This document shows positions 6,128 through 51,321 of a stretch of DNA of 64,000 nucleotides, piece by piece. The position numbers were made by a program, and so were the translations under genes. Numbering within the stretch: position 1 is the stretch's first letter; every line of letters starts with the position of its first letter. Where the stretch lies: positions 17,021 through 81,020 of the forward strand of contig JBEKQZ010000001.1 of NCBI GenBank assembly GCA_049519175.1. The letters are read 5' to 3'. The notes under the pieces are model-generated. The model had not been told where the DNA came from. It did no database searches and saw only the letters and a list, made by a program, of their open reading frames with translations. The DNA is from Candidatus Levyibacteriota bacterium. Its GTDB lineage: Bacteria > Patescibacteriota > Microgenomatia > Levybacterales > UBA12049.

Positions 6128-7548
6128 AGAGCGGAAATGCCGCCGTGGGACAGAAGAAAAAGAAGTCCACCTGTTAATGTGACTATAACGCCGACAATTC
6201 CAACTGTGATTATAGAAGGATTCCCGGTTGGGGGCAATAGTTTACCGGTTGGGCTAATTATAATCCCCCCTTTAGTTTCTGTTTGAGCAGGCGAAATCGT
6301 TGGCGTCGTGGTCTTAAATGGCGCGGAAGTTACTGTTGGCGTTACGGTTGGAGACAAAATTACCGTTGGCGTGACCTTTGGCGTTAGTGTTGGACTTGGT
6401 GTTAAGATAACGCTTGGTGTTGGTGTCACGGATGGCGCTGGCGGATTAGTTTGTTGCCCCGCGGCATAAACCACAAAGGACTGAGTAATAGTTTGTAAAA
6501 TTCCAGAAGCATTTTTGGTAGTAATGGCAATGGTATGATTCCCGGGCGTTAGCGGAGTGGTTGGCCGATAACTCCAATCTCCGTTGCTGTCGGTGGTGAC
6601 ACTGGTTTCTACCGGAGTGTCCGAGTGGATGACAATGTCAACATTTTGTTCGGGTAAGCCGGTGCCTTTAAATAAAGGTTGTTGGTCGGTAAAGCTCTGG
6701 TTTTCTTTGGGCGTCAGTATCTCAGGAGCTGGTGATTGCGCCGAAGCAGTACTTTCAAATGACGGAAAACTCTCCAAACTTACAGGAACAGTAATTGGGG
6801 ACTGGCCGGTTGTAAAATCGTAGTTTTTAGAAAGCGTAATTGTCGGTACAGGATGAATTTGGCTAAATGACAGCGAAGCATTGGATGAAAGTGAATTGCC
6901 TATCGCCAGAATTTTTACGCCGGCATCTTGGGGGAAAGCATAGTAAGTAGAATTATCACCGGTTCTTAAAGAATTAAGCGGTAAAATGTAGCTCCCGTCA
7001 GATTTAACTAAAGTCGAAATTACTTGTGCGCCATCCATAGTGACATACACTAGCGCTTCGCTTGGCGCTGTTCCGTCGGGAAGAATTATGTTGCCCGTTA
7101 TCGGTGCCTGGCCCGGCGGATTTGCTAAGGCCGGACCCGTCGTAACCGTAAAAGGCTGACCGTTGTTTGAGTAGCTATCTTGTCCGCTGGTAATTGTAAA
7201 AAAGTATTGCGTCTGTTGGGACAAACGCTGGACGGTAATGTTATGAATATTATAATTTGCCAAATTGCCGCTTTGTTGGTCCCTGTCATCTAATGCCGAT
7301 TGTCCAAGACTCTGGTCTTTTCCGTAATTTAGAGAACCCGGCACCTGAGTATTTGTTGAATAAGAAACGGTAAAAGAAGTGTCGGTAATGTTAGTGATAC
7401 GGACATCGTTGGGCTGGTTGGAAAGGCTGGCATTTGATTTAAAGAGCGTACTTTGATTAGCCAAAAAAGTGGTTACGCCAACGCCAATAACGATAATAAG
7501 AATACCTAAAATGGTCGGAATTTTTTTGTTCCAAAAACTTTCTCTCAT
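6124..7548 (-). CDS. Secreted multi-domain surface protein (FN3-like, carboxypeptidase-regulatory-like and Ig-like domains, Pro/Thr linker) ending in an LPPTG sortase-type sorting signal plus TM segment
   Basis: N-terminal signal anchor. ITNITDTSFTVSYST (FN3-like). ITGNIILPDGTAPSEALVYVTMDG...SDGSYILPL (CarboxypepD_reg-like). TPTPSVILTPSPTLTPKVTPT linker. C-terminus ...KLLPPTGNPSIITVGIVGVIVTLTGGLLFLLSHGGISAL. Confidence 0.75.
   Translation of the reverse strand: MRESFWNKKIPTILGILIIVIGVGVTTFLANQSTLFKSNASLSNQPNDVRITNITDTSFTVSYSTNTQVPGSLNYGKDQSLGQSALDDRDQQSGNLANYNIHNITVQRLSQQTQYFFTITSGQDSYSNNGQPFTVTTGPALANPPGQAPITGNIILPDGTAPSEALVYVTMDGAQVISTLVKSDGSYILPLNSLRTGDNSTYYAFPQDAGVKILAIGNSLSSNASLSFSQIHPVPTITLSKNYDFTTGQSPITVPVSLESFPSFESTASAQSPAPEILTPKENQSFTDQQPLFKGTGLPEQNVDIVIHSDTPVETSVTTDSNGDWSYRPTTPLTPGNHTIAITTKNASGILQTITQSFVVYAAGQQTNPPAPSVTPTPSVILTPSPTLTPKVTPTVILSPTVTPTVTSAPFKTTTPTISPAQTETKGGIIISPTGKLLPPTGNPSIITVGIVGVIVTLTGGLLFLLSHGGISAL
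6290..6450 (-). repeat. Imperfect short tandem repeats (GTTGGCGT-like units) encoding the Pro/Thr linker of the LPPTG surface protein (approximate bounds)
   Basis: Reiterated gttggcgt(t/g)ac / ggtgttgg units on the plus strand, encoding TPT(V/L)-type repeats on the minus strand. Confidence 0.5.
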
Positions 7549-7887: not shown

Positions 7888-8487
7888 TTATTGTTTAAAG
7901 AAAACTGTGCCGTTAAGACTTAATTGCAAATTGCCATTTTCGGTTGACAAAATTATCGCTTTTAAAGCCACCACTCTTTGAAAATTGGCGATTTGACTCA
8001 AAAAATTGAGAATATTTGGATAGGTTCCTGTAGCGGTGATCGTAAAATCAAAAGAAGATTGTTTTTGAGAGGATGATTGTAAAAGGGTAACTTCCGAGAT
8101 TTGGAAACTGGTAAGTGTCAAAGATGTGCTGTTGGCGATAGATTGCGCTTCCGCCACGAAAAGTGGGATTTGTGTTGTGGTGGGGACTGCGTCATTAACA
8201 ATTGGGAGATCGGGCGAAAGATTAGTATATTGCTGTTGCAAGATAGCTAGGTCGTTTATTTTTTGCTGCAGCTTTTGCTGGACAAAATTACTGTCATCAA
8301 TTTGTTTTTGCAGATTAGCAATGGTCGAAAAAGTCGGATTAATGGCAAAAAGACCAAGTATAATGGCCGTAACTAGAGTTAGAACAATGGTGATATATTT
8401 TTGCGTCTTTTCCTGTTTAAGATCCGGAATTAACGCCAAATATTTTTCATATTGTTCTTTTTTTATGGCTTTAATTTGCAGACGCAT
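7888..8487 (-). CDS. pilO: Type IV pilus assembly protein PilO-like
   Basis: 199 aa. Short cytoplasmic N-terminus, one TM (ITIVLTLVTAIILGLFAI), a Q-rich coiled coil, then a ferredoxin-like periplasmic region. Overlaps pilN by 17 nt. Confidence 0.55.
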   Translation of the reverse strand: MRLQIKAIKKEQYEKYLALIPDLKQEKTQKYITIVLTLVTAIILGLFAINPTFSTIANLQKQIDDSNFVQQKLQQKINDLAILQQQYTNLSPDLPIVNDAVPTTTQIPLFVAEAQSIANSTSLTLTSFQISEVTLLQSSSQKQSSFDFTITATGTYPNILNFLSQIANFQRVVALKAIILSTENGNLQLSLNGTVFFKQ

Positions 8488-9031
8488 TTATTCCTCCTTG
8501 TCCTTTAAGATTAGCTGTAATTCCAACGGTAATAGTCGCTTTGGCGGTATCGTTTTGGATTTTGTCTAGACTGACACTATCAATGGCAGGATAGGCTTTT
8601 AATTTATCGATAAAATCAGAAAGGGCAGTAACCGAATTAACGGTGGCGGCGATTTGCGCTTGAGTTGGAGATAAATCAAGGGTTGTATAGGTAACTCCGC
8701 TTGGTGTCAAAGCAACAATGTCCTTAAATACTTTCAAGTTTTGCGTGGAAGCTTTGGAAACGGAAGAAATTAACGCTAACCGGTCTTGTAAATTTCGGTA
8801 TTTGCTTTCGCTAGCGCTTTGATAGGCAACAATTGCCTGCTCTTGTTTTACTTTTGTGCGTAAATCCTGGAGCTGGTTGTCAAGCGAAAAACGGTATAAA
8901 AAAGCGCCAAGCGCCACCAGTTCGACAAGAATTACTAGGGCCCGGCCAATAGTTAATACCCAGGAAACAATCAAATCTAGCGTTTTATTCTTATTTTCCA
9001 ATAAATTAATAGAGGCAGAAAACTTCGCCAT
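8471..9031 (-). CDS. pilN: Type IV pilus assembly protein PilN
   Basis: 186 aa. N-terminal SINLLE (the conserved PilM-binding INLLP-type motif), a single TM, then a coiled coil. Confidence 0.65.
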   Translation of the reverse strand: MAKFSASINLLENKNKTLDLIVSWVLTIGRALVILVELVALGAFLYRFSLDNQLQDLRTKVKQEQAIVAYQSASESKYRNLQDRLALISSVSKASTQNLKVFKDIVALTPSGVTYTTLDLSPTQAQIAATVNSVTALSDFIDKLKAYPAIDSVSLDKIQNDTAKATITVGITANLKGQGGINASAN

Positions 9032-9040
9032 ACTAACTTT

Positions 9041-9069
9041 AGTCTATTGGTTTTTGAGGCTTTTGTCAA
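9041..9069 (-). promoter_or_regulatory. Sigma70-type promoter for the pilN-pilO-surface-glycan operon (TTGACA-17-TAGACT on the minus strand)
   Basis: On the minus strand: cTTGACAaaagcctcaaaaaccaaTAGACTaaagttagt ATG(pilN). Lies between the rpsT stop and the pilN start. Confidence 0.45.
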
Positions 9070-9081
9070 AGAAGAAATGAG

Positions 9082-9381
9082 CTATTTTTTGGTTTTGAGC
9101 TGTTTCTTTTTCACGACTGTCTTTTTAACAACTTTGGCTTTTGTGGTCGATTTGGATAGCTTACTAAGTCTTGATTTAATTCTGGCGGCTTTGTTTTTGT
9201 GGATTAAGCCTTTTTTAACCGCCTTATCAACCAAAGAAACGGCTCGCCTGACTTTTTCTGCGGTTTTGCTTTTTACCGCTTCTTTAACAGCGTCTTTAAA
9301 GGTTTCCCTTTGAAAATCATTTCTTTTTCGCCTTTTTTTATCCTGTCTCAATTTCTTTTTGGCTGATTTTATTACTGGCAT
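9082..9381 (-). CDS. rpsT: 30S ribosomal protein S20
   Basis: MPVIKSAKKKLRQ... with the ...GLIHKNKAAR... block typical of S20. Lys-rich C-terminal extension. Confidence 0.8.
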   Translation of the reverse strand: MPVIKSAKKKLRQDKKRRKRNDFQRETFKDAVKEAVKSKTAEKVRRAVSLVDKAVKKGLIHKNKAARIKSRLSKLSKSTTKAKVVKKTVVKKKQLKTKK

Positions 9382-9420
9382 GCGGGTATTTTAGCATGCT
9401 ATACTGTAAAAAACAACAAT

Positions 9421-11105: not shown

Positions 11106-12851
11106 ATGTCTTTTAGTAACATCCGTAATTTTGCCATCATCGCTCACGTTGACCATGGAAAATCGACGTTGGCCGACCGCTTTTTGGAAATCACCAACAC
11201 AATTCAAAAGGATAAATTAAAAGAACAATTCTTGGATCAAAACCCGATTTCTAGAGAACGTGGCATCACCATTAAATTGGCACCGGTTCGGATGAAATAT
11301 GCAGTTGATGGACAGGAATATATCCTAAATTTAATTGACACTCCTGGGCACATGGATTTTTCCTACGAAGTCTCCCGGACTCTGGCGGCTTGCGAAGGAG
11401 CAATCCTTTTGGTTGATGCCACCAAGGGAATTCAGGCCCAGACGGTAGCGCATTTCAACGCGGCCAAGAAAGAAAACTTAACCATTATTCCGGCAATTAA
11501 TAAAATCGACCTTCCCACCGCCAACACGGAAGAAGTCACTAAAGATTTAATTGAGACTTTCGGGTTTAAACAGGAAGAAATTTATTATGTTTCGGCTAAA
11601 ACCGGAGAAAACACCAGACAGCTTTTGCAGGCGGTGGTGAAAAAAATTCCAGCTCCTAAAGTAAATGACAACGCGCCTCTGCGCGGCTTAGTGTTTGACG
11701 CGGTTTTCGATGAACACCGAGGCGTAGTTATTTTTACCAAATTATTTGATGGTAGTGTTAAAAAACAAGATAAACTGGAATTTATCCAGAATAAAACTAA
11801 AGTTGACGTGTCGGAAGTAGGATTTTTCTCGCCCTTTTTAATGTCCAAAGAGGAATTAACCGCCGGAGAAATCGGCTATATTGTCACCGGCTTAAAAGAT
11901 ATCCGCAGAACCCGGGTCGGAGACACAATCACAGCCCAAAATTTAAAAGGCAAAATGCAAAACTTAAATGTTCAGCCGTTGCCTGGATACGCAACGCCAA
12001 AGCCAATGGTCTTTTTTGGCGTTTACCCGCAAACTTCCAACGAATATGTTCACTTACGGGAAGCGCTGAATAAGCTATCACTCAATGACGGCTCATTAAC
12101 TATTTCCAATGAGTATTCGGCGTTTTTGGGCAGTGGCTTTCGGGTGGGATTTTTGGGACTTTTACACGCGGAAATTGTCAAAGAAAGATTAACCAAGGAA
12201 GAAGGCGTGGAGCCGATTTTAACGATGCCCAAAGTTTTATATGAAGAAAAAGATGGAAAGATGCTGGAGCCCTACATGATCTTAACGATTTTTGTTCCTG
12301 CCAGTTTTGTCGGCGCAGTGATGACAGTGGCACAAAATAAAAAAGGCACTCTTTTAGGCATCTCTTATCATAAAAACAACGCTATTTTGCAATATGAGAT
12401 GCCTTACTCGATGTTTATCCGCGGACTTTCGCCGGATTTAAAAAGCGCCACCCAAGGTTTTGCCAGTCTAGATTATGAAATCACCGGTTACAAAGAGGCG
12501 AGGTTGGTAAAAATGGACGTTCTTATTAACGGTAGCCCGATTGATGTTTTGTCAGAGCTGGTTTACGAAGATGAAATGAGTTCTGTCGCCCGCGAAAAAA
12601 CGGAAAAATTAAAAGAACATCTGCCAAAACAACAATTTAAGCAAATCATTCAGGCGGTGGTTGGGGCAAAAATCTTGGCCAGAACGGAAATTTCTCCTTA
12701 CCGCAAAGATGTGTTAGCCAAAATGTCCGGCGGAGACAGAACTCGGAAAGATAAATTACTGGAGGCGCAGAAAAAAGGAAAGAAAAAGATGGTTAATGTT
12801 TCAAAAGTACAGATTCCCCAGAAGGCATTGCTGTCGATGCTCAGAAGCTAG
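11106..12851 (+). CDS. lepA: Elongation factor 4 (LepA)
   Basis: NFAIIAHVDHGKSTLADRFLE G-domain. 581 aa, with the LepA-specific C-terminal domain. Confidence 0.95.
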   Translation: MSFSNIRNFAIIAHVDHGKSTLADRFLEITNTIQKDKLKEQFLDQNPISRERGITIKLAPVRMKYAVDGQEYILNLIDTPGHMDFSYEVSRTLAACEGAILLVDATKGIQAQTVAHFNAAKKENLTIIPAINKIDLPTANTEEVTKDLIETFGFKQEEIYYVSAKTGENTRQLLQAVVKKIPAPKVNDNAPLRGLVFDAVFDEHRGVVIFTKLFDGSVKKQDKLEFIQNKTKVDVSEVGFFSPFLMSKEELTAGEIGYIVTGLKDIRRTRVGDTITAQNLKGKMQNLNVQPLPGYATPKPMVFFGVYPQTSNEYVHLREALNKLSLNDGSLTISNEYSAFLGSGFRVGFLGLLHAEIVKERLTKEEGVEPILTMPKVLYEEKDGKMLEPYMILTIFVPASFVGAVMTVAQNKKGTLLGISYHKNNAILQYEMPYSMFIRGLSPDLKSATQGFASLDYEITGYKEARLVKMDVLINGSPIDVLSELVYEDEMSSVAREKTEKLKEHLPKQQFKQIIQAVVGAKILARTEISPYRKDVLAKMSGGDRTRKDKLLEAQKKGKKKMVNVSKVQIPQKALLSMLRS

Positions 12852-13993
12852 AGAGCGAATAAAAGAACAGCTCCGATTAGTGTGATAACAGCTCCGATAG
12901 TCCCAACTTGCACAAGATTAGTCGGACCGGTTGGCGGAAGTGGACTGACCTGCGCAATTACCGGAGTAGGTGTCGGTGTAGGCGTTGCGGTCGGAGCAGC
13001 CACAACGGTTGTAGTTCCTCCACCGGCGGTAATAGTGACAGAGCAATTAGCAGAACTACTCACGGCATTGTTGGCGTCGGTTAAGGTTGCGGTAGCAGTA
13101 TATGTGCCGGCGGTTGTATAGGAATGAGATTGTAAAACGCTGACGGAATTTGTACCTATTCCACCGGAGCCTGTAATATCTTGAGATTGACTGTCACCAA
13201 AATTAAAAGTAACTTTACTAATAGTGGAATTGCTACTTGAACCGGTAACGGTTAAATTCGTAGCCAAAGGCACTGCCCCGGAAGTGTTGTCGGCTGTCAG
13301 ACTTGAACAGGTTGGGGCGGCGCTAGACTGTGTCGAGGTCGGTGTCGGCGTTAAGGTCTCCGTAGGCGTCAACGTTTCTGTCGGCGTAGTTGTCACATTT
13401 GTGCCGGCAATTATCGTTAAAGCGGCTGGATTCGCGCTGGCCAAAACATTTTCGCTGGACTGGTCACTTGTGCCCAAAGATAAGACCTGTGTATCGTTGC
13501 CAAAGGTAATTTGAGTTGGACCAGAATCTGTCGTCGCAATCGCTTTAAAAGTAATAGTACCAATAGTCGTTGTCTGTTGCACTACTTGAGAGGGATCCCC
13601 GCCGGCAGAAAGAGTAATGGAAATTGTTCCGTTTCCGTAGGTTGGCCCCTGTAAAATATCCGGTAAAACATGCGTTGGGTTGACGGTAGTATTGGTGACG
13701 ATAAGACCCGCTCCGTCCGTTGCCAATTTTGTGCTGTCATACATGATTGTAAATTTGACGTAAGAAACCAGATTAGAGGTGGTAGCGGTAGCCGGATCAA
13801 CTTGAATGTTGAGATTGACATCGTCGCCAACGTGAATTGGCGCTTGCGATGCCGGAAGAATGCTGATCGTCGTCGCTGCCACGGCCGAGCTCTTAGTTTT
13901 TTGTTGTTGTTGGACCAAGAAGACGGTGACCGGAATTGCAACGAGCAAAACTACAATAAAGCCAATTAAAAGAATTTTCTTCATTGAAGACAT
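12848..13993 (-). CDS. Secreted surface protein (cohesin-like domain, Pro/Thr linker, PKD domain) ending in an LPPTG sorting signal plus TM segment
   Basis: Signal anchor MSSMKKILLIGFIVVLLVAIPV. Cohesin-like N-domain. TPTETLTPTETLTPTPTS linker. PKD-like ...HSYTTAGTYTATATLTDANNAV.... C-terminus ...VSPLPPTGPTNLVQVGTIGAVITLIGAVLLFAL. Convergent 4-nt overlap with lepA. Confidence 0.7.
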   Translation of the reverse strand: MSSMKKILLIGFIVVLLVAIPVTVFLVQQQQKTKSSAVAATTISILPASQAPIHVGDDVNLNIQVDPATATTSNLVSYVKFTIMYDSTKLATDGAGLIVTNTTVNPTHVLPDILQGPTYGNGTISITLSAGGDPSQVVQQTTTIGTITFKAIATTDSGPTQITFGNDTQVLSLGTSDQSSENVLASANPAALTIIAGTNVTTTPTETLTPTETLTPTPTSTQSSAAPTCSSLTADNTSGAVPLATNLTVTGSSSNSTISKVTFNFGDSQSQDITGSGGIGTNSVSVLQSHSYTTAGTYTATATLTDANNAVSSSANCSVTITAGGGTTTVVAAPTATPTPTPTPVIAQVSPLPPTGPTNLVQVGTIGAVITLIGAVLLFAL

Positions 13994-25107: not shown

Positions 25108-26562
25108 TCAAGTGATGCGCGGAAAAAGGGAAGCGAAAGATTTAATTTCGGTTTTCGTAAATTGTGCTTTTATTTTTGCGCTAGTTTCCGGCAAAAACGG
25201 TTCTAAAAGTTCTGCAATTTCTTCAATTTCATCAACCGCGTGTCCCAAAATGATATTAATCGGCCGTTTTAAATTTCCGGCGGGAGTTTTTAGCAGTTCC
25301 CAGGGTTTTTCTTCATTGATATATTGATCAACTTTGGTAATTTTTCCCCAAATCAAATTCAGTGTTTCGTTAAAGCGGTACTCGCTCAGCAGTTTTTTGT
25401 ATTTGTCAAAATCATTAATGACGTGGTGATTGTTTTCTGCTGGGCTTTGTCTAAAATTGGCCGTTTCGCAAAGTTTGGCCATTCTGGAAATTAAATTCCC
25501 TAAGCCATTAGCAAGATCGGCATTGTAGACTTCTTTAAATCGCTCAAGCGTAAAATCTCCGTCCGCGTCAATTGGAATTTGTGACAGCAGGAAATAACGT
25601 AGCGCTTCAACGCCGTATTCTTTGGTAAACTCAAACGGGTCAATTACATTACCAATGCTTTTACTCATTTTTTCGCCTTTAGTGTAAACAAATCCGTGAA
25701 TTAAGATTTCCTTTGGTAGCGGCAAGCCGGCCGACAACAGCATGGCCGGCCAGTAAACAGTATGAAAACGGTTAATGTCTTTGCCAATAACGTGCAAATC
25801 GGCGGGCCACCATTTCTGCCATTTTTCCTCATCCCAGCCGTAACCCACCCCGGTCATGTAAATATTCAAAGCGTCAAACCAAACATACATTACCTGATTA
25901 GCATCGCCCGGCACCGGCACGCCGACTCCTTGCGCGCGCTGCTTACTTCTGGAAACGCTAAAATCTTCCAGCCCTTGTTTAATAAAAGACAAAGCTTCTT
26001 CTCTTTTATTGCTTGGAGTAATCTTAAGTTTCCCCGACTCAATTAATTCAGTCAGTTTGTCCTGATAGTTAGATAACTTGAAAAAATAATTTTCTTCCGA
26101 AATTTTTTCCGGAGCTTTTTGATGCGTTGGACAAAGACCATTTATCAATTCTTTTTCGAGTTTAAAACCTTCGCAACCGACACAATACAATCCTGCGTAA
26201 GATTTTTTGTAAATGTCGCCGTTTTTAACACAAAGATTCCAAAATTTTTGTACGCCCGGCCAATGTTTTTGTTGGTCGGAACTTCTTTGAAAAACATCCA
26301 AGTGAACACCTAGTTTCTCATAGGCATTCTGCCAAAGCTTAGAATTGTCATCCAAAAATTGTTTAATCGGTATCCCTTCTTTTTGTGCCGCCTGAACGTT
26401 TTTTAGCGCGTTTTCATCGGCACCGGATAAAAGCAAAGTTTCATCGCCTAAAATCTGATGATATCTTCGGATGACGTCGGCTTGAAAATATTCCAAGGTA
26501 TGCCCGATATGCGGCTTACCGTTAACGTAAGGAATGGCGGTGGTAATATAAAATTTATTCAT
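25108..26562 (-). CDS. metG: Methionine--tRNA ligase
   Basis: ...AIPYVNGKPHIGHTLE... (HIGH) and ...EKMSKSIGNVIDP... (KMSKS). 484 aa. Confidence 0.95.
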   Translation of the reverse strand: MNKFYITTAIPYVNGKPHIGHTLEYFQADVIRRYHQILGDETLLLSGADENALKNVQAAQKEGIPIKQFLDDNSKLWQNAYEKLGVHLDVFQRSSDQQKHWPGVQKFWNLCVKNGDIYKKSYAGLYCVGCEGFKLEKELINGLCPTHQKAPEKISEENYFFKLSNYQDKLTELIESGKLKITPSNKREEALSFIKQGLEDFSVSRSKQRAQGVGVPVPGDANQVMYVWFDALNIYMTGVGYGWDEEKWQKWWPADLHVIGKDINRFHTVYWPAMLLSAGLPLPKEILIHGFVYTKGEKMSKSIGNVIDPFEFTKEYGVEALRYFLLSQIPIDADGDFTLERFKEVYNADLANGLGNLISRMAKLCETANFRQSPAENNHHVINDFDKYKKLLSEYRFNETLNLIWGKITKVDQYINEEKPWELLKTPAGNLKRPINIILGHAVDEIEEIAELLEPFLPETSAKIKAQFTKTEIKSFASLFPRIT

Positions 26563-26583
26563 TGCCTAAAGATTATACCAGAA

Positions 26584-26919
26584 TCACTTGCGCTTAATAA
26601 AAAATAATTCGATTCCGCCGAAAAGTATCAATAATAGAATCGCGAAGAATGGAGAAATCAGTCCATTTAACCTCAATGATAAATAAGCAATTACCAGAAG
26701 GCCCAATAAAAATCCCCGGCGGGAATTGTTCAAAATAAAAGTAAAGAAGGAAAAGATTAATAAAAATAAAAGCGTTAATCCTGAAAGCAAAATTGAAAAT
26801 CGAAAATTATAAATTGAAAATTGATAGACGGGGGAATAGTTCAGAACCAAATACCCAAGAGCTATCAAGCTCAAAATGAAAACAATCAACAGCCAAAACG
26901 GTCGTCTTTTCTTATGCAT
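26584..26919 (-). CDS. Small membrane protein (3 TM), hypothetical
   Basis: 111 aa. Hydrophobic helices. Upstream of metG on the same strand. Confidence 0.45.
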   Translation of the reverse strand: MHKKRRPFWLLIVFILSLIALGYLVLNYSPVYQFSIYNFRFSILLSGLTLLFLLIFSFFTFILNNSRRGFLLGLLVIAYLSLRLNGLISPFFAILLLILFGGIELFFIKRK

Positions 26920-26954
26920 AATTCAAGTTTAGCAGATTTTGTTTAAAATGGGGC

Positions 26955-26991
26955 TTGACAAGGTTTGGCAGTCGTGTTATATTACTGCTAA
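26955..26991 (+). promoter_or_regulatory. hrcA-grpE promoter (TTGACA-17-TATATT) overlapped by a CIRCE-like 9-9-9 inverted repeat
   Basis: TTGACA 26955-26960 and TATATT 26978-26983. TTGGCAGTC-gtgttatat-TACTGCTAA at 26965-26991, compared with CIRCE TTAGCACTC-N9-GAGTGCTAA (right arm 7/9, left arm 7/9). Confidence 0.6.
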
Positions 26992-27011
26992 TCTAAAATT
27001 TATCTGAAATT

Positions 27012-30240: not shown

Positions 30241-32001
30241 ATGTGCGGAATATACGGTTTTGTTTCAAACGAAGAACATTCGGCCAATGAAATCCTGGAA
30301 GGATTAAAACTTTTGGAATACAGAGGCTATGATTCTTGGGGAGTAGCGGTAAAAAGCGGTAAGCAAATTTTCGTTGACAAAAACATCGGCAAAATCGGCA
30401 GCGCCAAACTAAAACCCCGGAAAAGCAATCTTGGCATCGGTCATACGCGTTGGGCCACTCACGGTGGAGTAACTATTAAAAACGCTCATCCTCATCTCGA
30501 TTGTAAACAAAATATCGCCGTGGTTCACAATGGCATCATCGAAAACTATCAGGAGCTAAAGCAAGATTTAATTAAAAAAGGTCACAGGTTCGTTTCCGAA
30601 ACCGACACCGAAGTTTTCGCGCACTTGGTGGAAGAGTTTTTGAAAAAAGACGGCTTTGCAACCGCCGTTAGAAAAGCTTTCAACGTAATTCAAGGACTAA
30701 ATGCGATAGTAGTAATGAGCTCTGTTTCATCCGAAATTGTAGCCGCCAAAACGGGATCACCTTTAATCGTCGGTGTTGGGAATAATGGATTTTTTATCTC
30801 TTCCGATGCGGTAGGAATTTACGGACATGCTACAAAAGCACTTTTCTTAAAAGATAATGAAATGGTGGTTTTAGGAAAAAACTTACAACTAATTTCTTTA
30901 CCAAGAGGGAATAAATTAACGCCGGAATTTGAAAAAATAGAATCTAAAGCGGCGGATAAAGGTAAAGGTGAATATAAACATTTTATGCTGAAAGAAATTA
31001 TGGAGCAGCCGGCGATTTTGCAAAATATCGCCGAAAATTATCAGGATATCATCGCTGATTTAAGCGGTAAAATTAAAAACGCCTACGGCACCTATTTTGT
31101 CGGAGCGGGAACCGCTTTCTATGCCTGTTTGGCCGGAACATATCTTTTTTCCAAAATTGCCAAACTGCATGTCAATACCGCGCCGGCTTCGGAATTTAAT
31201 TATTTGGAAGATTTTTTAACGCCAAAAAGTTTAGTGATTGGTTTATCGCAAAGCGGTGAAACAATCGACGTAATAGAACCATTGCAAATCGCCAAAAAAA
31301 GCAGAGCCAAGATTATTGCCATCACTAACACGAAAGGTTCAACGATTTATCGGATGGCGGATGAAAAAATTCTCCTGGGCGCGGGAACGGAAAAAGCGGT
31401 GGCATCAACTAAAGCCTATTTGGCAAAGCTGTCAATTCTTTTAATGTTGGCGTTTGCGATGAAAGGACAAATTGGGAAAGCCCAGAATCTTTTAGGACAA
31501 GCAGCGAAAGAGATTCAGAGTATTTTTTCTCCGCGGTATCTTAAGCAAATTCAAATGTTGGCTAAAGTTATGCAGTCAAAAGAACATATTTTTATTATCG
31601 GACGCGGAATGTCGTATCCATCGGCTTTGGAAGGCGCTTTAAAAATTCGGGAAGTTAGTTATTTGCACGCCGAGGGGATTGCCGGCGGGGAATTAAAACA
31701 CGGACCAATCGCTTTAATTGAAAAAGGAACGCCCTGCATAGTTTTTGCGCCAAACGATGAAACCTACGCGGCAATTATGTCAAACGCGATGGAAATTAAG
31801 GCCCGCGGCGGAGTAATTATCGGAATTAGCTACAAAAATAGCGAAGTATTTGATTATTTTTTGCAAGTTTTAGATTTACAGGATGCAACGATTCTAACGC
31901 AAATCGTTCCACTGCAGCTACTGGCTTATTACATTGCGGTTAATAAAGGCTTTGATCCGGACAAACCCAGAAATTTAGCTAAAAGCGTCACGGTTAAATA
32001 G
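30241..32001 (+). CDS. glmS: Glutamine--fructose-6-phosphate aminotransferase
   Basis: MCGIYGF... N-terminal Cys nucleophile and two SIS domains. Ends ...SVTVK. Confidence 0.95.
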   Translation: MCGIYGFVSNEEHSANEILEGLKLLEYRGYDSWGVAVKSGKQIFVDKNIGKIGSAKLKPRKSNLGIGHTRWATHGGVTIKNAHPHLDCKQNIAVVHNGIIENYQELKQDLIKKGHRFVSETDTEVFAHLVEEFLKKDGFATAVRKAFNVIQGLNAIVVMSSVSSEIVAAKTGSPLIVGVGNNGFFISSDAVGIYGHATKALFLKDNEMVVLGKNLQLISLPRGNKLTPEFEKIESKAADKGKGEYKHFMLKEIMEQPAILQNIAENYQDIIADLSGKIKNAYGTYFVGAGTAFYACLAGTYLFSKIAKLHVNTAPASEFNYLEDFLTPKSLVIGLSQSGETIDVIEPLQIAKKSRAKIIAITNTKGSTIYRMADEKILLGAGTEKAVASTKAYLAKLSILLMLAFAMKGQIGKAQNLLGQAAKEIQSIFSPRYLKQIQMLAKVMQSKEHIFIIGRGMSYPSALEGALKIREVSYLHAEGIAGGELKHGPIALIEKGTPCIVFAPNDETYAAIMSNAMEIKARGGVIIGISYKNSEVFDYFLQVLDLQDATILTQIVPLQLLAYYIAVNKGFDPDKPRNLAKSVTVK

Positions 32002-32016
32002 TGGTAAAATTAAATT

Positions 32017-32904
32017 ATGGCAAGTAGTGATTATTATCAAATTTTAGGAATTTCCAAAAACGCAACGGAAGCGGAAATAAAAAGAGCTTACCGCAAATTA
32101 GCTCTGCAATATCATCCGGATAGGAATAAAGGTAAGGAAGCGGAGGAAAAATTCAAGGAAGTGAACAAAGCTTACGAAGTTTTGTCCGACACGCAAAAAA
32201 GACAAACTTACGACCAGTTTGGCGCGGCGGCGTTTGAGCAAGGTGGCCCAACCGGGCAAGGAGCCGGCGGACCATTCGGCGGGTTCGGAGGACAACAAGG
32301 TCCGTTCACTTATACCTACTCAACCAGTGGTGGAAATCCGCAGGGGTTTGATTTCGGTGGAGGATTTTCTGACCCGTTTGAAATTTTCGAGCAATTTTTT
32401 GGTGGTGCGTCACCATTTGGCCGGGCGCAAAGACGCTCTACTTATTCACTAACCATTTCCTTTATGGATGCAGTGAAAGGCGCAACTAAAAGAGTGCAAT
32501 TGGAAGGGAAAACGCAGACGATTAAAATTCCTGCCGGAGTTGATAACGGCTCTAGAATTCGCTTTGGTGATTATGACGTAGTGATTGATGTGACGTCGGA
32601 CAGAAAATTCAGGCGGCAGGGCTATGATATTATTTCGGATGAGGAAATTAGTTTTCCGCAGGCTGCACTAGGCGATACGGTTGAAGTCCAAACGGTTCAG
32701 GGTTTGGTCAAAATAAGAGTTCCCTCTGGCACTCAACCGGAAACTCTAATCCGACTGCGGGGCAAAGGTGTAAAAATGTTAAGAGGTTCCGGGCACGGTG
32801 ACCATTACGTCAGAATAAAAGTCACAGTTCCAAAAAATCTTTCCGGACACCAAAAAGAATTGTTAAAAGAATTCGACGACTCCAAAAAACACGGCTGGTT
32901 CTAA
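32017..32904 (+). CDS. dnaJ: DnaJ-class co-chaperone without Zn-finger domain (type II / CbpA-like)
   Basis: J-domain ...[35 protein letters not shown].... Gly/Phe-rich region. C-terminal substrate-binding domains. No CxxCxGxG repeats. Confidence 0.85.
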
Positions 32905-32905
32905 T
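32868..32905 (+). repeat. Direct repeat copy 1: the last 11 codons plus stop of dnaJ
   Basis: AGAATTCGACGACTCCAAAAAACACGGCTGGTTCTAAT is about 82% identical (31/38) to the 33755-33792 copy. Confidence 0.8.
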
Positions 32906-32943
32906 CCTCTTAATCAATTTTCATGTAATGCTTAGAATGTGGC

Positions 32944-33744
32944 TTGACATATATATATATGCTGTGCTTAGATGTATTTATGTTAGGATTTGGTGAACCA
33001 CCAGCGGGAGCAACGCCACAACAAGCTACGGAAACTGTTCCGCCATCAACGCCAGCGGCAACAGAAAATCAGGATAATGAAACTCTGCAGCCCCCCAAAA
33101 AAGGATTAGCGGAAAGACTCCAAGCAGTAAGAGCAGAGTCAGATTTAGTAGAAGATGAAGCTAGAGAAAGTTTGGCAAAGATATTAAAAGATATAAGAGG
33201 CGTCATGGAGATTGTTGCTACAACATTGCCAATAGATCCCCAAAAATCATCTAGGGACAAACCAAGAGATTCAGCGCTACAATTACCTGATGGAAGATAT
33301 GTTAGGACAACAACAGCTTTTGGTGAAGAGTTTAGAGAAGGTATTTTTGTTGGTGCAGATGGGGAAAAAGCGAAAGTTAGCTTGGAGACTAGAGGGTCAT
33401 ATGATCGGGCATTGGACCCTAATGATCAAGCAGCAGTTGAAAAAATGCATGATTTCGATAAATTTATTAACATTCAAGACCCAGAAGATCCTAGCTTAAC
33501 AGTGGGAATGAGCACAATGTTCCCAGGGAGATTTTATATTGAGCAGTTGGATAAAAAAGATGACACAGTGTTCGTAGAAAAAAGTTATAGGGATGATAAA
33601 GTGTACATGGGAAAACTTGAAAATGGAGGAGATCCCCTTGAAATAGCCAGAAGAACTATAGACTTTGCGACAGCAGCAAGGCTACAACAGGCGGAAGTGC
33701 CGGTAGCAACAGCCACTCCTCAGCCGATGTCAACAGTAGCTTAG
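32944..33744 (+). CDS. Hypothetical acidic soluble protein encoded on an ~850-bp insert with atypical codon usage
   Basis: The ORF-track start is a TTG that coincides with a TTGACA -35-like hexamer. Alternative ATG starts at about 32959 and 32980. Enriched in ATA/CCA/GCA/ACA/GTA/AGA codons relative to neighbouring genes. No TM segment and no recognisable domain. Confidence 0.5.
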   Translation: MTYIYMLCLDVFMLGFGEPPAGATPQQATETVPPSTPAATENQDNETLQPPKKGLAERLQAVRAESDLVEDEARESLAKILKDIRGVMEIVATTLPIDPQKSSRDKPRDSALQLPDGRYVRTTTAFGEEFREGIFVGADGEKAKVSLETRGSYDRALDPNDQAAVEKMHDFDKFINIQDPEDPSLTVGMSTMFPGRFYIEQLDKKDDTVFVEKSYRDDKVYMGKLENGGDPLEIARRTIDFATAARLQQAEVPVATATPQPMSTVA

Positions 33745-33754
33745 TTCCGCGAAG

Positions 33755-33792
33755 AGAATTCGATAACTCCAAATCCCACGGCTGGTTTTGAT
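33755..33792 (+). repeat. Direct repeat copy 2: degenerate duplicate of the dnaJ 3' end including a stop codon
   Basis: AGAATTCGATAACTCCAAATCCCACGGCTGGTTTTGAT translates in the dnaJ-equivalent frame as EFDNSKSHGWF*, versus the dnaJ ending [11 protein letters not shown]. Confidence 0.8.
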
Positions 33793-33824
33793 TGCAAAAA
33801 TAACCTCAATCTTCTACACTTGAA

Positions 33825-34154
33825 TTGATGCTTAAACTGCCCGTTCAAATTCTCAAATTTTGGTATCTGGAAGCACCAAGTAATATCCTCAAGTTTTTTG
33901 CTTCACTAAATTCAGCTTTTTTTGGTGTCTTTTCGCTTCCTCTAATGGTTAAAACTTTCTTCAAACCCTGGAAAAATGAATATAGAGAAGGTTTAGTTGG
34001 TTTCTCAATAATTATGGGAATGATAATAAAGAGTTTATTTATTTTTGCCGATTTGTTTCTGTTCGTCGGTCTTTTAATTTGCGAAATAGCAATGTTTTTA
34101 ATCTTTTTAATTTTACCAATTGCGGTGTTTATTTTGCCGTTTATTAAACTATGA
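33825..34154 (+). CDS. Small 3-TM membrane protein translationally coupled to the Clp-like ATPase
   Basis: 109 aa, hydrophobic. ATGA 4-nt overlap with the downstream gene. Confidence 0.5.
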   Translation: MMLKLPVQILKFWYLEAPSNILKFFASLNSAFFGVFSLPLMVKTFFKPWKNEYREGLVGFSIIMGMIIKSLFIFADLFLFVGLLICEIAMFLIFLILPIAVFILPFIKL

Positions 34155-36523
34155 AAGGCTTTGCAAAATTTTATTTTTACTACACCAGTTCAATTATAAT
34201 TTTAGCCCGGCTTTTACTGTTCATCCTCTTTGCGGTTGGATCTGCGTTTCTCATTATCAACAAATTTACTCCGAATATATTTTTACTGTTGCTTGGTTTA
34301 ATGTTAGTATTTGAAATTTTCTTTAAATATAAAATTGCCAAAACAAATCCAAAAGTCGAAGTCTTGCAAAATACCGGTGATCCGCTTGATTCATTCTCGC
34401 TAGAATTATTGGGTATTCTGGAAACACAAAAGACCGTTTCGCAAATCATTAAACAATTGATCAATCTCCCACAAATGCAATTCATAATTCTGAAAGCGGA
34501 TTTAAAACCCGAAGGAATTATTTTAGTTGATGGAGACAAACAAACACTAATCCAATCCACATTCAATTTAGCAAAAGAAGCCAAAGGTAAATACGTCACA
34601 GCGATGGATTATTTCATCGCTTATTTGCTGTTAATCGAGCCGTCGGCAAAAATTTTGTTCAACCATAAATTAAAAGAAGAAGATCTCAAAAATATTTTAG
34701 CGTGGGCCAGACACGTTCACACGGAGGAAGAGTCGCCGAAACAAACTATTGTTAATTTTGCCGGAGAGGGCATTGCCGAAGAGTGGGTTTACGGGTGGAC
34801 GCTGGAAACCAAGAAATACATGCTTGACTTAAGCCACGAATTTTTAAGCGGCAGAATCGAACCGATGCGTCGGGTCAACGAATTCCAGCAATTGACGGAA
34901 GCGCTTTTCAAAGGCGACAGCGTAATTTTGGTTGGCGATGCGGGCAGCGGCAAAGAAGCAACTGTTAAAGAATTGGCGATCGAAAGTTTTATGGGCAGAC
35001 TAAAAAATAATCTATATCATCAAAAAATTTATCAATTGATGGTCGATGCGTTTATGGCCGGCGCACAAAATCAGGGTGAAATTGAAGCTAGAATTAATGC
35101 TTTAATTACGGAAATTGCCCACTCCGGCGATACGATAATTTATATTCCGGAATTCCAAAATACTTTGGGCAGTTCCACGTTTCATTTGGATATTTCCGGC
35201 GCTTTAATTCCCTATTTGCAGAAAAAAGAAATCCGAATTATTGCGACAGTAACACCTGGTGCTTATAAAACTTTTCTTGAACCAATGAAAACACTTTTAG
35301 ATAACTTCACAGTAATCAATTTCTCCGAGCCTTCAAAAGAAGAAGTGTTACAAATGCTGTTTCAGAAAGCGGCGGTAATTGAAGAAAAAGATAATGCCGT
35401 CATTACTTACAAAGCGGTACTGGCGGCCTGTAATTTTGCCGATAGATACTCAAAGGAAAAAGTTTTGCCGGGGAGTGCAGTGACGCTTTTGGAAGATACG
35501 GCTAACGCCGATAAAGTTTCCGGTAAGCGCATCGTAGAAGAACAGGATATTTTGAGTCAAATCGAGAAAAAAATTCGAGTCCCCGTAGGAGAGCCAAAAC
35601 CAATTGAAAAAACGCTACTTTTAAATTTAGAGAATGAAATTCACAAAAGAGTAGTAGATCAGGAAGAGGCTGTGTTTGCAATCTCGGAAGCAATTAGAAG
35701 GCTTAGAACCGGTCTTAATGTGGCCGAAAAGCCGATCTCGTTTCTATTTTTGGGCCCCACCGGCGTTGGCAAAACCGAAACCGCCAAAGCGCTGGCTGCT
35801 GTTTATTTTGGGCAAGGTGCCAGAATGATTAGATTGGATATGAGCGAATTTGTGGGAGAGGAGGGAATAAAGAAACTTTTGGGCTCCGCTCCCGGCGAAG
35901 GAAGTGAAAAAGGTGAATTGGAAATGGTTTATGACAATCCCAATTCGTTAGTGCTTTTGGATGAGTTTGAAAAAGCCGACCAGCAAATTTTAAATTTATT
36001 TTTGCAGGTTTTAGATGATGGTAGACTGACCGATGATAAGGGCAAAACTGTTTCGTTTGCCAATTGCATTATCATTGCCACTTCTAACGCCGCCTCGGAA
36101 TTTATCAGGGAAGAAGTTGGTAAAGGCGTTCAAGTTAACAAACAGTTCCAACAAAACCTCATCAACTATTTGGAAACTAAAGGCATTTTTAAGCCCGAAC
36201 TTTTAAACCGTTTTGACGACATCATTACTTTCAAACCGCTCGGGCAAACGGAAATAACGCAAATAGTAAAATTAATGCTCATCGGCGTTGCCAAGGAGTT
36301 GGCGGCCAAAGATATTACAGTTTATTTTGATGAAAAAATCATCGTCAAAATTGTCAATGAGGGATTTGATAAAGATTTTGGTGCCAGACCTTTGCGAAGA
36401 TTTATCCAAGACAAAATAGAAGATTTAATTGCGCAAGCAATCCTTAAAGATGAAATCAAACGCGGTGACAAAATCCAAGTCTCCGTTGATTCCACAAATA
36501 ATATCTCCGTAAATAAACCTTAA
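34151..36523 (+). CDS. Membrane-anchored Hsp100/Clp-family AAA+ ATPase with degenerate D1 module and canonical D2 module
   Basis: Two N-terminal TM helices. D1 ...VILVGDAGSGKEATVKELA... (Walker A Thr replaced by Glu) and ...TIIYIPEFQN... (Walker B Asp replaced by Pro). D2 ...FLFLGPTGVGKTETAKALA..., ...LVLLDEFEKA..., sensor-2 GARPLRRFIQ. No long M-domain and no IGF/IGL ClpP-docking tripeptide seen. Confidence 0.7.
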   Translation: MKGFAKFYFYYTSSIIILARLLLFILFAVGSAFLIINKFTPNIFLLLLGLMLVFEIFFKYKIAKTNPKVEVLQNTGDPLDSFSLELLGILETQKTVSQIIKQLINLPQMQFIILKADLKPEGIILVDGDKQTLIQSTFNLAKEAKGKYVTAMDYFIAYLLLIEPSAKILFNHKLKEEDLKNILAWARHVHTEEESPKQTIVNFAGEGIAEEWVYGWTLETKKYMLDLSHEFLSGRIEPMRRVNEFQQLTEALFKGDSVILVGDAGSGKEATVKELAIESFMGRLKNNLYHQKIYQLMVDAFMAGAQNQGEIEARINALITEIAHSGDTIIYIPEFQNTLGSSTFHLDISGALIPYLQKKEIRIIATVTPGAYKTFLEPMKTLLDNFTVINFSEPSKEEVLQMLFQKAAVIEEKDNAVITYKAVLAACNFADRYSKEKVLPGSAVTLLEDTANADKVSGKRIVEEQDILSQIEKKIRVPVGEPKPIEKTLLLNLENEIHKRVVDQEEAVFAISEAIRRLRTGLNVAEKPISFLFLGPTGVGKTETAKALAAVYFGQGARMIRLDMSEFVGEEGIKKLLGSAPGEGSEKGELEMVYDNPNSLVLLDEFEKADQQILNLFLQVLDDGRLTDDKGKTVSFANCIIIATSNAASEFIREEVGKGVQVNKQFQQNLINYLETKGIFKPELLNRFDDIITFKPLGQTEITQIVKLMLIGVAKELAAKDITVYFDEKIIVKIVNEGFDKDFGARPLRRFIQDKIEDLIAQAILKDEIKRGDKIQVSVDSTNNISVNKP

Positions 36524-50589: not shown

Positions 50590-51321
50590 TCATATTTTTT
50601 CCACTTTCGTTTTAACCACCAATCTTTTCCAAGTTGTGCCGGGCGGTGTGCAAGTGACCAGAGTTAAATAACTATCGTCAAAGCTTTGTTCCAAAATAGA
50701 AGTGTTCTCCGGGTCAACGACGGTAATATTTTGCACTTGATATTTGTAAGTAGATTTACCGACATTAACGATAATTTCATCGCCGGGGGATAACTCATAC
50801 AGATAAGTAAAAACGGTTTTGTAACTTTTGGCATCGTAGAGTTGAGGTAGGGTGGAATGTCCAAAAACTACCGCATTACCTTTCTCGCCGGGAATAGCGG
50901 TCCCACCATAATTTACCAAATGACTGGCTAAATCATTATCAACCGTTGATACGACAGCATTGACTATGTTTAATTTAGGGATTGATAAGGAGTAAGTTGT
51001 TACTTGCTGTTTTGTATTCGATTGCCTTTTAAAATTAGGAAACCAATTATCAGCATTATTATAGTCAACGCCGCTAAGCGTGTTTGAGGCTTCGGCCAAA
51101 AGAGTTTGAAAAGTTGAGCTATTTACAATAGTGCTTTGCGGGATCGGGGAGCTAATATTTTGACTGGCAAATACCGGCGCAAAATAGATTTGCCAAGAAA
51201 TTAACGGTAGAAAAACGTAAGCCGTGATTACTAGTCCTATCGCAAAAATTCCTAACCCGATTAAGCGGGTGAATTTCTTCTTTCTATTTCCTTGGGCTTT
51301 TTTGTAATAAACTTTTGGCAT
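50590..51321 (-). CDS. Sortase-family transpeptidase
   Basis: N-terminal TM (LIGLGIFAIGLVITAYVFLPL), catalytic His in ...NAVVFGHSTLP..., catalytic Cys in ...YLTLVTCTPPGT..., and a downstream Arg (WKRLVV). 1-nt overlap with the upstream gene. Confidence 0.75.
   Translation of the reverse strand: MPKVYYKKAQGNRKKKFTRLIGLGIFAIGLVITAYVFLPLISWQIYFAPVFASQNISSPIPQSTIVNSSTFQTLLAEASNTLSGVDYNNADNWFPNFKRQSNTKQQVTTYSLSIPKLNIVNAVVSTVDNDLASHLVNYGGTAIPGEKGNAVVFGHSTLPQLYDAKSYKTVFTYLYELSPGDEIIVNVGKSTYKYQVQNITVVDPENTSILEQSFDDSYLTLVTCTPPGTTWKRLVVKTKVEKI

Follow-up and report, generated by a model that had tools for sequence, protein, structure and literature searches.

A 64,000-nt stretch from a Candidatus Levybacteria genome (hereafter, the window; an ordinary chromosomal stretch from the Microgenomates, within the Candidate Phyla Radiation (CPR), or Patescibacteria) carries 887 nt of inserted DNA between the chaperone gene dnaJ and the small membrane protein gene orf109. 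The insert holds one gene, ORF254, behind its own putative promoter, and ends in a diverged second copy of the dnaJ 3′ end. We find that a single gene has indeed been inserted exactly where the dnaJ stop codon meets the promoter of the orf109 operon, and that the junction is a lineage-wide hotspot of gene flux, not a private attachment site. The apparent element is best seen as one cassette in this lineage-wide gene-capture hotspot.

An earlier note on the window had reported that the last 38 nt of dnaJ recur 887 bp downstream. The duplication is confirmed at 31/38 identical positions and extends to a direct repeat of 41 nt with a spacing of 887 nt and 33/41 identities (80%; Table 1); the copies translate as claimed, into the last 11 residues of DnaJ and into EFDNSKSHGWF*. 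All of the Levybacteria DnaJ proteins compared share a tail of the form ...(G/S/A/K/T/N/R)WF*. The dnaJ-end repeat is the sole pair with at least 31/38 matches within 2 kb in the window, against a binomial expectation of 1.2e-4 for such pairs, and a scan of the window alone found no second gene-end scar. Because of the flanking repeat, the insert can be delimited equivalently as positions 32905–33791 or 32865–33751. Its ends carry no terminal inverted repeats and it encodes no transposase; hence it does not qualify as an insertion sequence, a transposon or a miniature inverted-repeat transposable element. The repeat length, which varies from 12 to 41 nt among loci, is likewise unlike a fixed short target-site duplication. 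No inverted repeat of the attC kind is present at 33745–33792. Two further candidates were rejected. A readthrough or recoding fusion of ORF254 with the remnant fails on translation, as the two lie in different frames; and a Xer/dif module does not fit a strand switch a few kilobases away that looks like an origin, not a terminus, or the lack of a 28-bp dif-like palindrome.

The insertion itself was tested by empty sites. A search of metagenomes with orf109 as the query returned 67 loci, onto which the neighbouring genes were mapped. At least ten of these are empty (L085, L087, L089, L132, L099, L102, L107, L108, L121 and L123), with the dnaJ stop codon followed by orf109 directly or within about 100 nt. 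Among them is the closest relative, L085, the DnaJ of which is 87% identical to that of the window. The junction in close relatives reads ...GGCTGGTTCTAA followed directly by TTGCAAAAATAACCTCAAT..., and at empty sites the −35 hexamer of the orf109 promoter directly abuts the dnaJ stop codon. In-silico removal of 32905–33791 recreates the L085 junction at 105/114 identity, with the TAA–TTGCAA boundary intact. The orf109-operon promoter differs by one base from that of L085 and is identical to that of L002, a locus with an ORF254 homologue. The proposal of an insertion is thus borne out. Mis-assembly, which would have undone it, is excluded because five further assemblies from ENA, JGI and Logan (L157, L158, L159, L160 and L001) match base for base, with 0 mismatches outside a length-variable AT tract.

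At least 15 other loci have 0.3–4.6 kb of unrelated DNA between dnaJ and orf109, made up of one to four ordinary genes that may point either way. Among this cargo are an isochorismatase-family gene accompanied by three small open reading frames (ORFs), a UPRTase, a peptidase S51, an APH-like gene, a 903-aa helicase with a 574-aa protein, an MFS transporter, a HAD hydrolase, a methyltransferase-like gene and several unknowns, as well as a CspA-like (cold-shock-like) gene recognized by reading of the sequence, outside the Pfam scan. That scan, of 20 larger cargo ORFs from 14 filled loci, found no integrase, transposase or recombinase. Several filled loci have scars, partial dnaJ ends that finish at the stop codon, before the orf109 promoter or before the next cassette: these measure 27 nt in L088, 19 nt in L094 and 30 nt (internal) in L104, and three copies are present in L100. 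Remnants at the corresponding position occur in L002, L003, L088, L094, L100, L104 and L162, and none is detectable in the filled loci L091, L103, L119, L128 and others. The cassettes are modular: the kinase-like gene of L100 stands alone in L119, the APH-like gene of L100 is found in L103, and the pair of a small ORF and upp in L104 recurs in L091. A survey of 1.47 Mb of fetched loci for gene-end duplications (threshold, 18/20 matches within 6 kb) was noisy, and its only clear cases were those already known (L151, L088 and L100). The earlier note had also offered site-specific capture at dnaJ. The junction is indeed reused, but it is not a site private to one element, as unrelated cargos share it and a homologue of ORF254 has the same kind of scar at ftsH.

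The repeated units of L100 (4116–4175, 4728–4790 and 4915–4975) combine the dnaJ end with a 16-bp perfect palindrome, AGTATACATGTATACT, degenerate in one of the three copies, and a TATAAT-like or −10-like box. The repeated unit runs about 35 nt beyond the stop codon, and may be an operator or a recombination site.

Comparison of dnaJ ends bears on which copy is the older at this site. The functional terminus of the window (GACGACTCC...) is of the DDSKK type, as in L087, L088, L089, L132 and, in the L002 cassette, the left copy. The displaced copy starts GAATTCGAT, like L085. It differs from the functional end by two synonymous changes, D to N, a whole-codon change of AAA to TCC, and TAA to TGA; with frame and stop intact, these differences read as allele-like rather than as random decay. 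In L104, the displaced copy (ENSKKQGWF*) matches the dnaJ ends of L091 and L108 at 27/30 positions versus 22/30 for its own. Because displaced copies in the window and in L104 resemble the functional ends of other lineages, the working end of dnaJ probably arrived with the incoming DNA, which displaced the resident end, in agreement with the replacement terminus that the note had envisaged.

The ORF254 family is rare. Only three relatives were found among 5.8 billion proteins, and a profile search of 1.84 billion representatives gave 12 matches at E ≤ 0.001, of which we take the eleven of comparable length (P0001 and P0003–P0012) as the family. In L002, the homologue is 76% identical and its cassette lies between two copies of the dnaJ end. 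The stop has been lost from the left one (EFDDSKKRGWFQ), and the gene before it is not dnaJ but an unrelated one on the minus strand. Our interpretation is that a newer insertion beside dnaJ displaced the ORF254 cassette with its dnaJ end downstream, a pattern that is expected if each insertion regenerates the target on the gene-proximal side. Two deeply diverged members, in L003 (31%) and L162 (23%), are each followed by a dnaJ-end remnant. The left flank of L003 is cut by the contig end; in L162 (1–160 and 968–1010), dnaJ is visible directly upstream of the family gene (P0011), the −35 hexamer TTGACA overlaps the dnaJ stop TGA, and a remnant, AAATAATCCGGCTGGTTCTAA, lies past the P0011 stop. 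This remnant fits the local type of dnaJ end, which is SGWF there and HGWF in the window clade. The insert had been described as foreign-looking; the insertion stands, but it is not strictly recent, as homologues with the same scar occur in these other lineages. The possibility that relatives share the gene as an ancient feature applies in part, because they carry a homologue together with a duplicated dnaJ end.

The same kind of scar occurs at a second gene. L151, a locus of another CPR genome, has P0012 immediately after ftsH, between two identical 21-nt copies of the ftsH end, GACTGTTCCCGTAAAAGCCTA (7938–7958 and 8756–8776); the right copy forms the last codons and the stop of P0012 and abuts the TTGACA of the next gene. 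Other members stand behind rpsT (beside PilO-like genes), near a GIY-YIG gene or behind a SAM_HAT_C-like gene, with no visible scar, and this range of positions led us to reject an obligate functional link to dnaJ. L153 and L154 come from close relatives of the window organism (LepA 90%, MurJ 89% and GroEL 97% identical), and both have their family member at the rpsT site. In L153 (5666–7546), P0006 sits between rpsT and a PilN/PilO-like pair; in the window (8471–9420), rpsT (minus strand, about 9090–9400) directly adjoins the PilN/PilO-like pair, an empty rpsT site. As members occupy varied sites, and this site is empty in the window, the family behaves as a movable accessory gene. A link to type IV pilus genes would be a guess from this gene order.

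The divergence of the orthologous cassettes in the window and L002 bears on their history. Their remnants measure 41 nt and 25 nt, respectively, the latter being shorter because of a gap of about 20 nt at the filler and remnant in the alignment of the two; differences in remnant length can reflect later deletion. The cassette core is about 90% identical at the nucleotide level, and orf109 is 65–76% identical beyond its first ~60 nt (synonymous difference pS, 0.57), which suggests that cassettes may be exchanged through homologous recombination in the flanking DNA. In the hosts, synonymous sites have reached saturation (synonymous divergence dS of about 2.4 between the window and L085). A test for mosaicism in dnaJ by sliding identity against eight relatives gave no clear breakpoint, synonymous sites being saturated. 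We also dropped an argument that the L003 member (31%) must be a xenologue, as a calculation of dN/dS showed that vertical divergence could explain it.

We favour, with moderate confidence, a reading in which cargo is captured by recombination anchored in the dnaJ 3′ end. Incoming DNA that already bore a dnaJ 3′ end and cargo would have recombined with the resident dnaJ, either by a Campbell-type single crossover of a circularized fragment or by homology-facilitated illegitimate recombination (HFIR) after uptake, both of which are established processes (PMC3240628). The donor terminus would then complete dnaJ, and the old terminus of the recipient would be moved downstream. The inserted unit is a self-contained, probably leaderless cassette, with its own putative promoter and a 254-aa acidic orphan protein. 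Identity would end at the stop codon because the donor and recipient arrangements cease to be homologous there, and only short or diverged repeats (12–41 nt) would survive because longer ones would recombine the insert out. Cassettes could later spread among relatives through homologous recombination in the conserved flanks. Homology-anchored capture would account for cargo of any kind, a donor-like left copy, the end at the stop codon and the shortness of the repeats.

Several points weigh against this. No recombination intermediate, circle or donor was seen. The repeat ends exactly at the stop nearly always, and the two long remnants (the right copy of the window and the left copy of L002) both start at GAATTY, a regularity that is also compatible with a site-specific enzyme whose crossover point is fixed. 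A 36–41-nt repeat with 5–8 mismatches at a dnaJ 3′ end is the outcome left by tyrosine-integrase prophages in Bifidobacterium (PMC6109161). The comparison of flanks with L002 extends over just 140 nt of orf109. Because host dS is saturated, vertical inheritance of an old insertion, followed by losses, may account for L003 and L162. The last dnaJ codons (S-K-K-H; window 32880–32904) show no synonymous variation in nine relatives in which dnaJ is otherwise 75–82% identical, with a mean pairwise codon difference of 0.08 at the dnaJ end versus 0.49 (compared in a permutation test that is biased by amino-acid composition). This invariance hints at a function at the DNA level, such as an att core or an upstream element of the promoter. 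The assignment of the cassette −10 box, and hence the effect of its spacer considered below, is also putative.

The regularity of the scars lends most to the alternative that survives best, which we nevertheless regard as somewhat unlikely: a tyrosine or serine recombinase acting in trans, from elsewhere in the genome or from a helper element, for which the dnaJ 3′ end would be attB and the repeats attL and attR. The cassette would then be an integrase-less cis-mobilizable element (CIME-like) or the residue of att-site accretion. The geometry is that of a classical scar, a direct repeat of a gene 3′ end with dnaJ reconstituted and intact; att-like remnants separate tandem cassettes in L002, L100 and L104; the two long remnants share their left boundary; and conservation of the dnaJ-end nucleotides persists even in filled loci. 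Bifidobacterium provides a precedent, with 35-bp att cores that have 5–7 mismatches at the dnaJ2 3′ end (PMC6109161). Against this stands the absence of an enzyme both from the scanned cargo ORFs and from the window, where no integrase or transposase was recognized among ORFs of at least 180 aa (translations inspected by eye, with no hidden Markov model scan). No cognate integrase-bearing element with the same att was recognized in the window (again by eye), in the related loci or in viral contigs, and neither the att-like 20-mer nor relatives of the ORF254 product (family profile) were found in 2.9 million viral contigs. The cargo is heterogeneous and consists of ordinary genes in both orientations, the scar of the ORF254 family at ftsH would require a second specificity, and the L100 unit extends well past the stop codon. 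No credible Rfam match to an RNA element was found, and no tRNA that could serve as a target lies in the window.

The constraint on the dnaJ end is also the starting point for an alternative that we judge unlikely, in which ORF254 would be an old resident gene, vertically inherited and fast-evolving, and the repeat would be kept before the orf109 promoter as functional DNA (a UP-like element or operator). Roughly 20–40 nt upstream of that promoter would overlap the dnaJ coding end; given such a functional overlap, viable arrangements would need two copies, one serving the protein and the other the promoter, and empty sites would have arisen secondarily, by deletion between the repeats. Members of 76%, 31% and 23% identity do occupy the same type of site with remnants, the remnants of L002, L003 and L094 hardly differ from the functional consensus, the −35 of orf109 leaves no neutral intergenic space behind dnaJ, and a nonsynonymous divergence (dN) of 0.6 is compatible with an ω of about 0.3–0.4 where host dS is saturated. 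However, the window and L002 remnants diverge at about the neutral rate (6/25 differences versus a pS of 0.33), which indicates that the window remnant is not strongly constrained, and several filled loci lack any remnant. Remnants fit the local type of dnaJ end (HGWF versus SGWF), so independent insertions or gene conversion would be needed. In addition, ORF254 is an outlier in third-position composition in its genome, and a close relative (lepA 90% identical) keeps a family member at the rpsT–pilN-like locus, which is empty in the window.

Duplication in situ at the time of insertion, by template switching (similar to microhomology-mediated break-induced replication) or by repair of a long staggered break, would yield copies that are initially identical, of which the right one then decayed. 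Template switching is known to leave duplications that flank an insertion, the process requires no enzyme gene, and the L151 repeat is perfect over 21 nt. We consider it highly improbable, as the differences between the copies in the window and in L104 resemble those of alternative functional alleles (synonymous, stop-to-stop and one whole-codon change), the L104 remnant is closer to other lineages than to its own, and the right boundary at the stop codon in most loci is left unexplained. An assembly artefact or chance similarity, for which nothing speaks beyond the general risk of metagenome assemblies, is of negligible probability given an identical structure in six assemblies from three pipelines, the low chance expectation for the repeat and scars in independent loci.

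A broader proposal, which we think unlikely, is that CPR bacteria of the Levybacteria group capture genes at the 3′ ends of housekeeping genes (dnaJ and ftsH) independently of integrases or by means of an unrecognized enzyme. This would build arrays of leaderless single-gene cassettes that bear promoters and are separated by gene-end remnants, an analogue of the integron without attC or IntI, in which one gene of orphan fold would be phase-varied by (AT)n.

Each of the components has a known counterpart: the locus combines gene-3′-end integration scars, flexible-genome hotspots and promoter polymorphism in a simple sequence repeat (SSR), in a poorly understood group. The prophages of Bifidobacterium that integrate at the 3′ end of dnaJ2 are 39–43 kb in length, inducible and encode a tyrosine integrase, and their repeat of about 35 bp, with 5–7 mismatches, contains a copy that the element brought from another host lineage (PMC6109161). 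As in that case, the dnaJ 3′ end is targeted and the gene restored by incoming DNA, here with 41 nt and 8 mismatches; unlike those prophages, the insert measures 887 nt, lacks an integrase and holds a single gene of non-phage type, and many unrelated small cargos share the junction. Integrase-less elements flanked by att sites, and their accretion, are known from the CIMEs of Streptococcus thermophilus and from tRNA-flanked islands and tycheposon remnants in Prochlorococcus, and in such systems cognate integrase-bearing elements are identifiable in the same populations. The dnaJ cassettes resemble them in being bounded by gene-3′-end repeats, with partial att remnants between blocks and no internal recombinase. 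They differ in that no cognate integrase element was found and in that the targets are the ends of protein-coding genes (dnaJ and ftsH) that abut leaderless promoters. Like integron arrays, the hotspot holds single-gene cassettes at one site with a short repeat at each boundary; unlike integrons, it has no attC hairpins, GTTRRRY core or IntI (window ORFs inspected by eye), and its cassettes bear their own promoters. We know of no previous description of a regular stop-codon scar that recurs at one junction across a phylum-level clade. The locus shares with HFIR and Campbell-type integration an enzyme-free character under the favoured reading, one junction in a conserved gene, cargo of any kind and a displaced segment derived from the recipient, but those are low-frequency laboratory phenomena (PMC3240628).

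How very small, uncultured CPR genomes gain and lose accessory genes is poorly understood, and they contain few recognizable mobile elements. As a repeatedly used insertion point, the dnaJ–orf109 junction offers a readable scar, empty and filled states and tandem accretion, so that the mechanism can be tested directly with existing read sets. For annotation, short duplicated gene ends mark horizontally captured genes where promoters abut the upstream stop codon.

The cassette promoter has a second unusual feature. As the earlier note had pointed out, a TTGACA hexamer is followed by an (AT)6 tract in the spacer. The hexamer is read from the sequence, and TTGAC is kept at the corresponding position in L002, L151, L153, L155, L156, L161 and L162. 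Homologues at eight loci share a layout of the −35, 17–19 nt (mostly 18), a box of TATAAT, CATAAT, TTTAAT or TTAGAT, then 6–8 nt and an ATG; a consensus promoter scan does not call the promoter of the cassette. The tract is the sole dinucleotide repeat of at least five units in the window, and tracts of at least six units appeared in 0/100 Markov simulations. Its length is polymorphic, which bears out a suggestion of the note. Six assemblies encode an identical DnaJ, and all of their compared bases (up to 3924 nt on the left side and 2930 nt on the right) are equal except in the tract, which is (AT)6 in the window, L157 (ENA ERZ27250144) and L158 (Logan SRR7028199) and (AT)5 in L159 (ENA ERZ27250043), L160 (JGI 3300017931) and L001 (Logan SRR7028008). 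Although the six assemblies may come from as few as two samples, each state comes from more than one pipeline, so the difference in length belongs to the samples and not to the assembler. The chance that a single difference placed at random in about 4 kb falls within the 12-nt tract is about 0.3%. A further contig, L084 (Ga0116131_1024846), is from the same strain, with a single SNP relative to window 33059–35183 (at 34984, in the clpB-like gene); it begins inside ORF254 and so excludes the tract.

With the putative −10 box, the spacer is 18 nt for (AT)6, as is typical of the family, and 16 nt for (AT)5. Slipped-strand changes in (AT)n would alter the spacing of the −35 and −10, and so might modulate expression of the cassette gene. 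The polymorphism is evidence, at the level of populations, that a promoter repeat may be hypermutable in a CPR bacterium, which would point to bet-hedging regulation of an orphan protein family. In pathogens, such regulation is typical of host-interaction and defence functions. A close parallel is in Haemophilus influenzae, where (TA)9–11 between the −35 and −10 of hifA and hifB drives phase variation (PMC2651432). The cassette likewise has (AT)n between the −35 and the putative −10, a 2-nt polymorphism in otherwise identical genomes and an accessory gene. Unlike hifA/hifB, the tract has just 5–6 units, for which lower slippage is expected, the spacers are 16 and 18 nt and not an optimal and a non-optimal one, and the organism is an environmental CPR bacterium. 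In a literature search on phase variation in the CPR, no promoter SSR switch was evident from titles and abstracts; one paper concerns a gene with coding repeats, not a promoter SSR (PMC6851277).

The near-repeat of the TGCTTAGA(A)TGT type that brackets the −35 and the tract had been proposed as a pair of protein-binding sites. The repeat is present, but the proposal finds no support. The first copy (TGCTTAGAATGT) is not conserved in the 76% orthologue in L002. More generally, promoters in the window (32968–32982 and 33815–33830) and in relatives have the ATG 6–8 nt past the −10, and the −35 often abuts the upstream stop, a pattern which suggests that leaderless mRNAs are widespread in these genomes and that neutral intergenic DNA is almost absent.

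ORF254 had been read as 266 codons long. The ORF exists, but its start lies further downstream: the 266-aa reading begins at a TTG that belongs to the −35 hexamer, whereas the ATG at 32980 and the N terminus MLGFGEPPAGATP are conserved in homologues and give 254 aa. Its preference for A-ending codons relative to its neighbours holds, with the highest A3 (0.45, z +3.4) and the lowest GC3 (0.28, z −2.8) of the 44 ORFs of the window and a C3 of 0.087; its overall GC content, 0.43, is ordinary. Between the window and L002, dS is 0.44 and dN/dS 0.26; this is an intact functional gene under purifying selection, which gives no support to the idea of a decayed integrated element. The gene is less constrained than dnaJ or orf109 (dN/dS 0.04–0.10); as a guess, it could encode a dispensable protein under fluctuating selection, perhaps concerned with host interaction or the cell envelope.

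The insert contains no integrase, as the note had said: its single ORF has no match in Pfam, PHROGs, NCBIfam or PADLOC, and shows no significant similarity of sequence or fold to known protein families, anti-phage defence or phage proteins. The suggested anti-defence or phage homology was not found, and we rejected a phage, anti-defence or defence origin, as scans of PHROGs, PADLOC and viral contigs were all empty. An AlphaFold2 (AF2) model from 12 sequences (pLDDT 83, pTM 0.72) has a disordered segment rich in Pro, Thr and Gln (residues 1–38), a long helix of ~40 residues (43–82), a curved antiparallel β-sheet and a C-terminal helix. Family members share the motifs FVGADGK, IQDPEDP(S/T)L and GDPFEIARRTLDFAKSATLKP...PQPTP and are all acidic (pI 4.6–5.4), and inspection of their N termini, made without a predictor, found no hydrophobic leader or stretch resembling a signal peptide.

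Table 1. Coordinates of the insert, its promoter and the flanking genes in the window
Feature	Position	Strand	Details
dnaJ	32017–32904	+	295 aa; J domain and DnaJ_C (Pfam PF00226, PF01556); ends in the 11-residue tail repeated downstream; stop TAA 32902–32904
Left repeat copy AAAAGAATTCGACGACTCCAAAAAACACGGCTGGTTCTAAT	32865–32905	+	functional dnaJ 3′ end, DDSKK allele type
Insert, 887 nt	32905–33791	+	absent from empty sites of relatives
Near-repeat TGCTTAGAATGT (32929–32940) / TGCTTAGATGT (32965–32975)	32929–32975	+	brackets −35 and AT tract; second copy contains the putative −10
−35 hexamer TTGACA	32944–32949	+	read from sequence
(AT)6 tract	32949–32960	+	in promoter spacer; length-polymorphic, (AT)6/(AT)5
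Putative extended −10, TGcTTAGAT	32965–32973	+	hexamer TTAGAT 32968–32973, preceded by TG; ATG 6 nt later, leaderless layout
ORF254	32980–33744	+	254 aa, acidic (pI 4.7), soluble; rare CPR-only family
Filler TTCCGCG, 7 nt	33745–33751	+	between ORF254 stop and displaced dnaJ end
Right repeat copy AAGAGAATTCGATAACTCCAAATCCCACGGCTGGTTTTGAT	33752–33792	+	displaced dnaJ terminus EFDNSKSHGWF*, stop TGA 33789–33791; non-coding, out of frame with ORF254
Putative promoter of downstream operon	33792–33820	+	TTGCAA 33792–33797, 17-nt spacer, TACACT 33815–33820
orf109, small membrane protein	33828–34154	+	ATG 7 nt past −10; conserved right flank of hotspot
ClpB-like AAA+ gene, membrane-anchored	34151–36523	+	790 aa; start overlaps orf109 stop (ATGA)

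The genes around the insert run in the order hrcA-grpE-dnaK-glmS-dnaJ-[ORF254]-orf109-clpB-like-nusA-infB. The DnaJ of the window is 60–68% identical to those of Levybacteria metagenome-assembled genomes (GTDB species representatives) and up to 87% identical to those on metagenome contigs, so that orthologues in Levybacteria span 60–87%; Pfam detects no zinc-finger domain in the product. On the other side of the hotspot, orf109 is kept at 40–99% identity in the 67 metagenome loci. The ClpB-like AAA+ protein has a hydrophobic, apparently membrane-spanning N terminus, and with orf109 it forms an unusual membrane-anchored, disaggregase-like pair that is conserved across the clade.

The chaperone cluster has a second rearrangement point, at glmS (30241–32001), which stands between dnaK and dnaJ in the window clade; in many other Levybacteria and Microgenomates dnaK is followed directly by dnaJ. 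No duplication of the dnaK end was seen by eye near glmS. Further to the left, gene orientation switches at ~26560–27010: large ORFs are mostly on the minus strand before this region and, from hrcA on, mostly on the plus strand after it. GC skew is positive over 28–38 kb, and the strand-switch region may be the replication origin region. Elsewhere in the window are two Thr/Pro-rich surface proteins and a sortase-like gene (6124–7548, 12848–13993 and 50590–51321); the surface protein at 6124–7548 carries an LPPTG-like sorting signal ahead of a hydrophobic tail at its C terminus.

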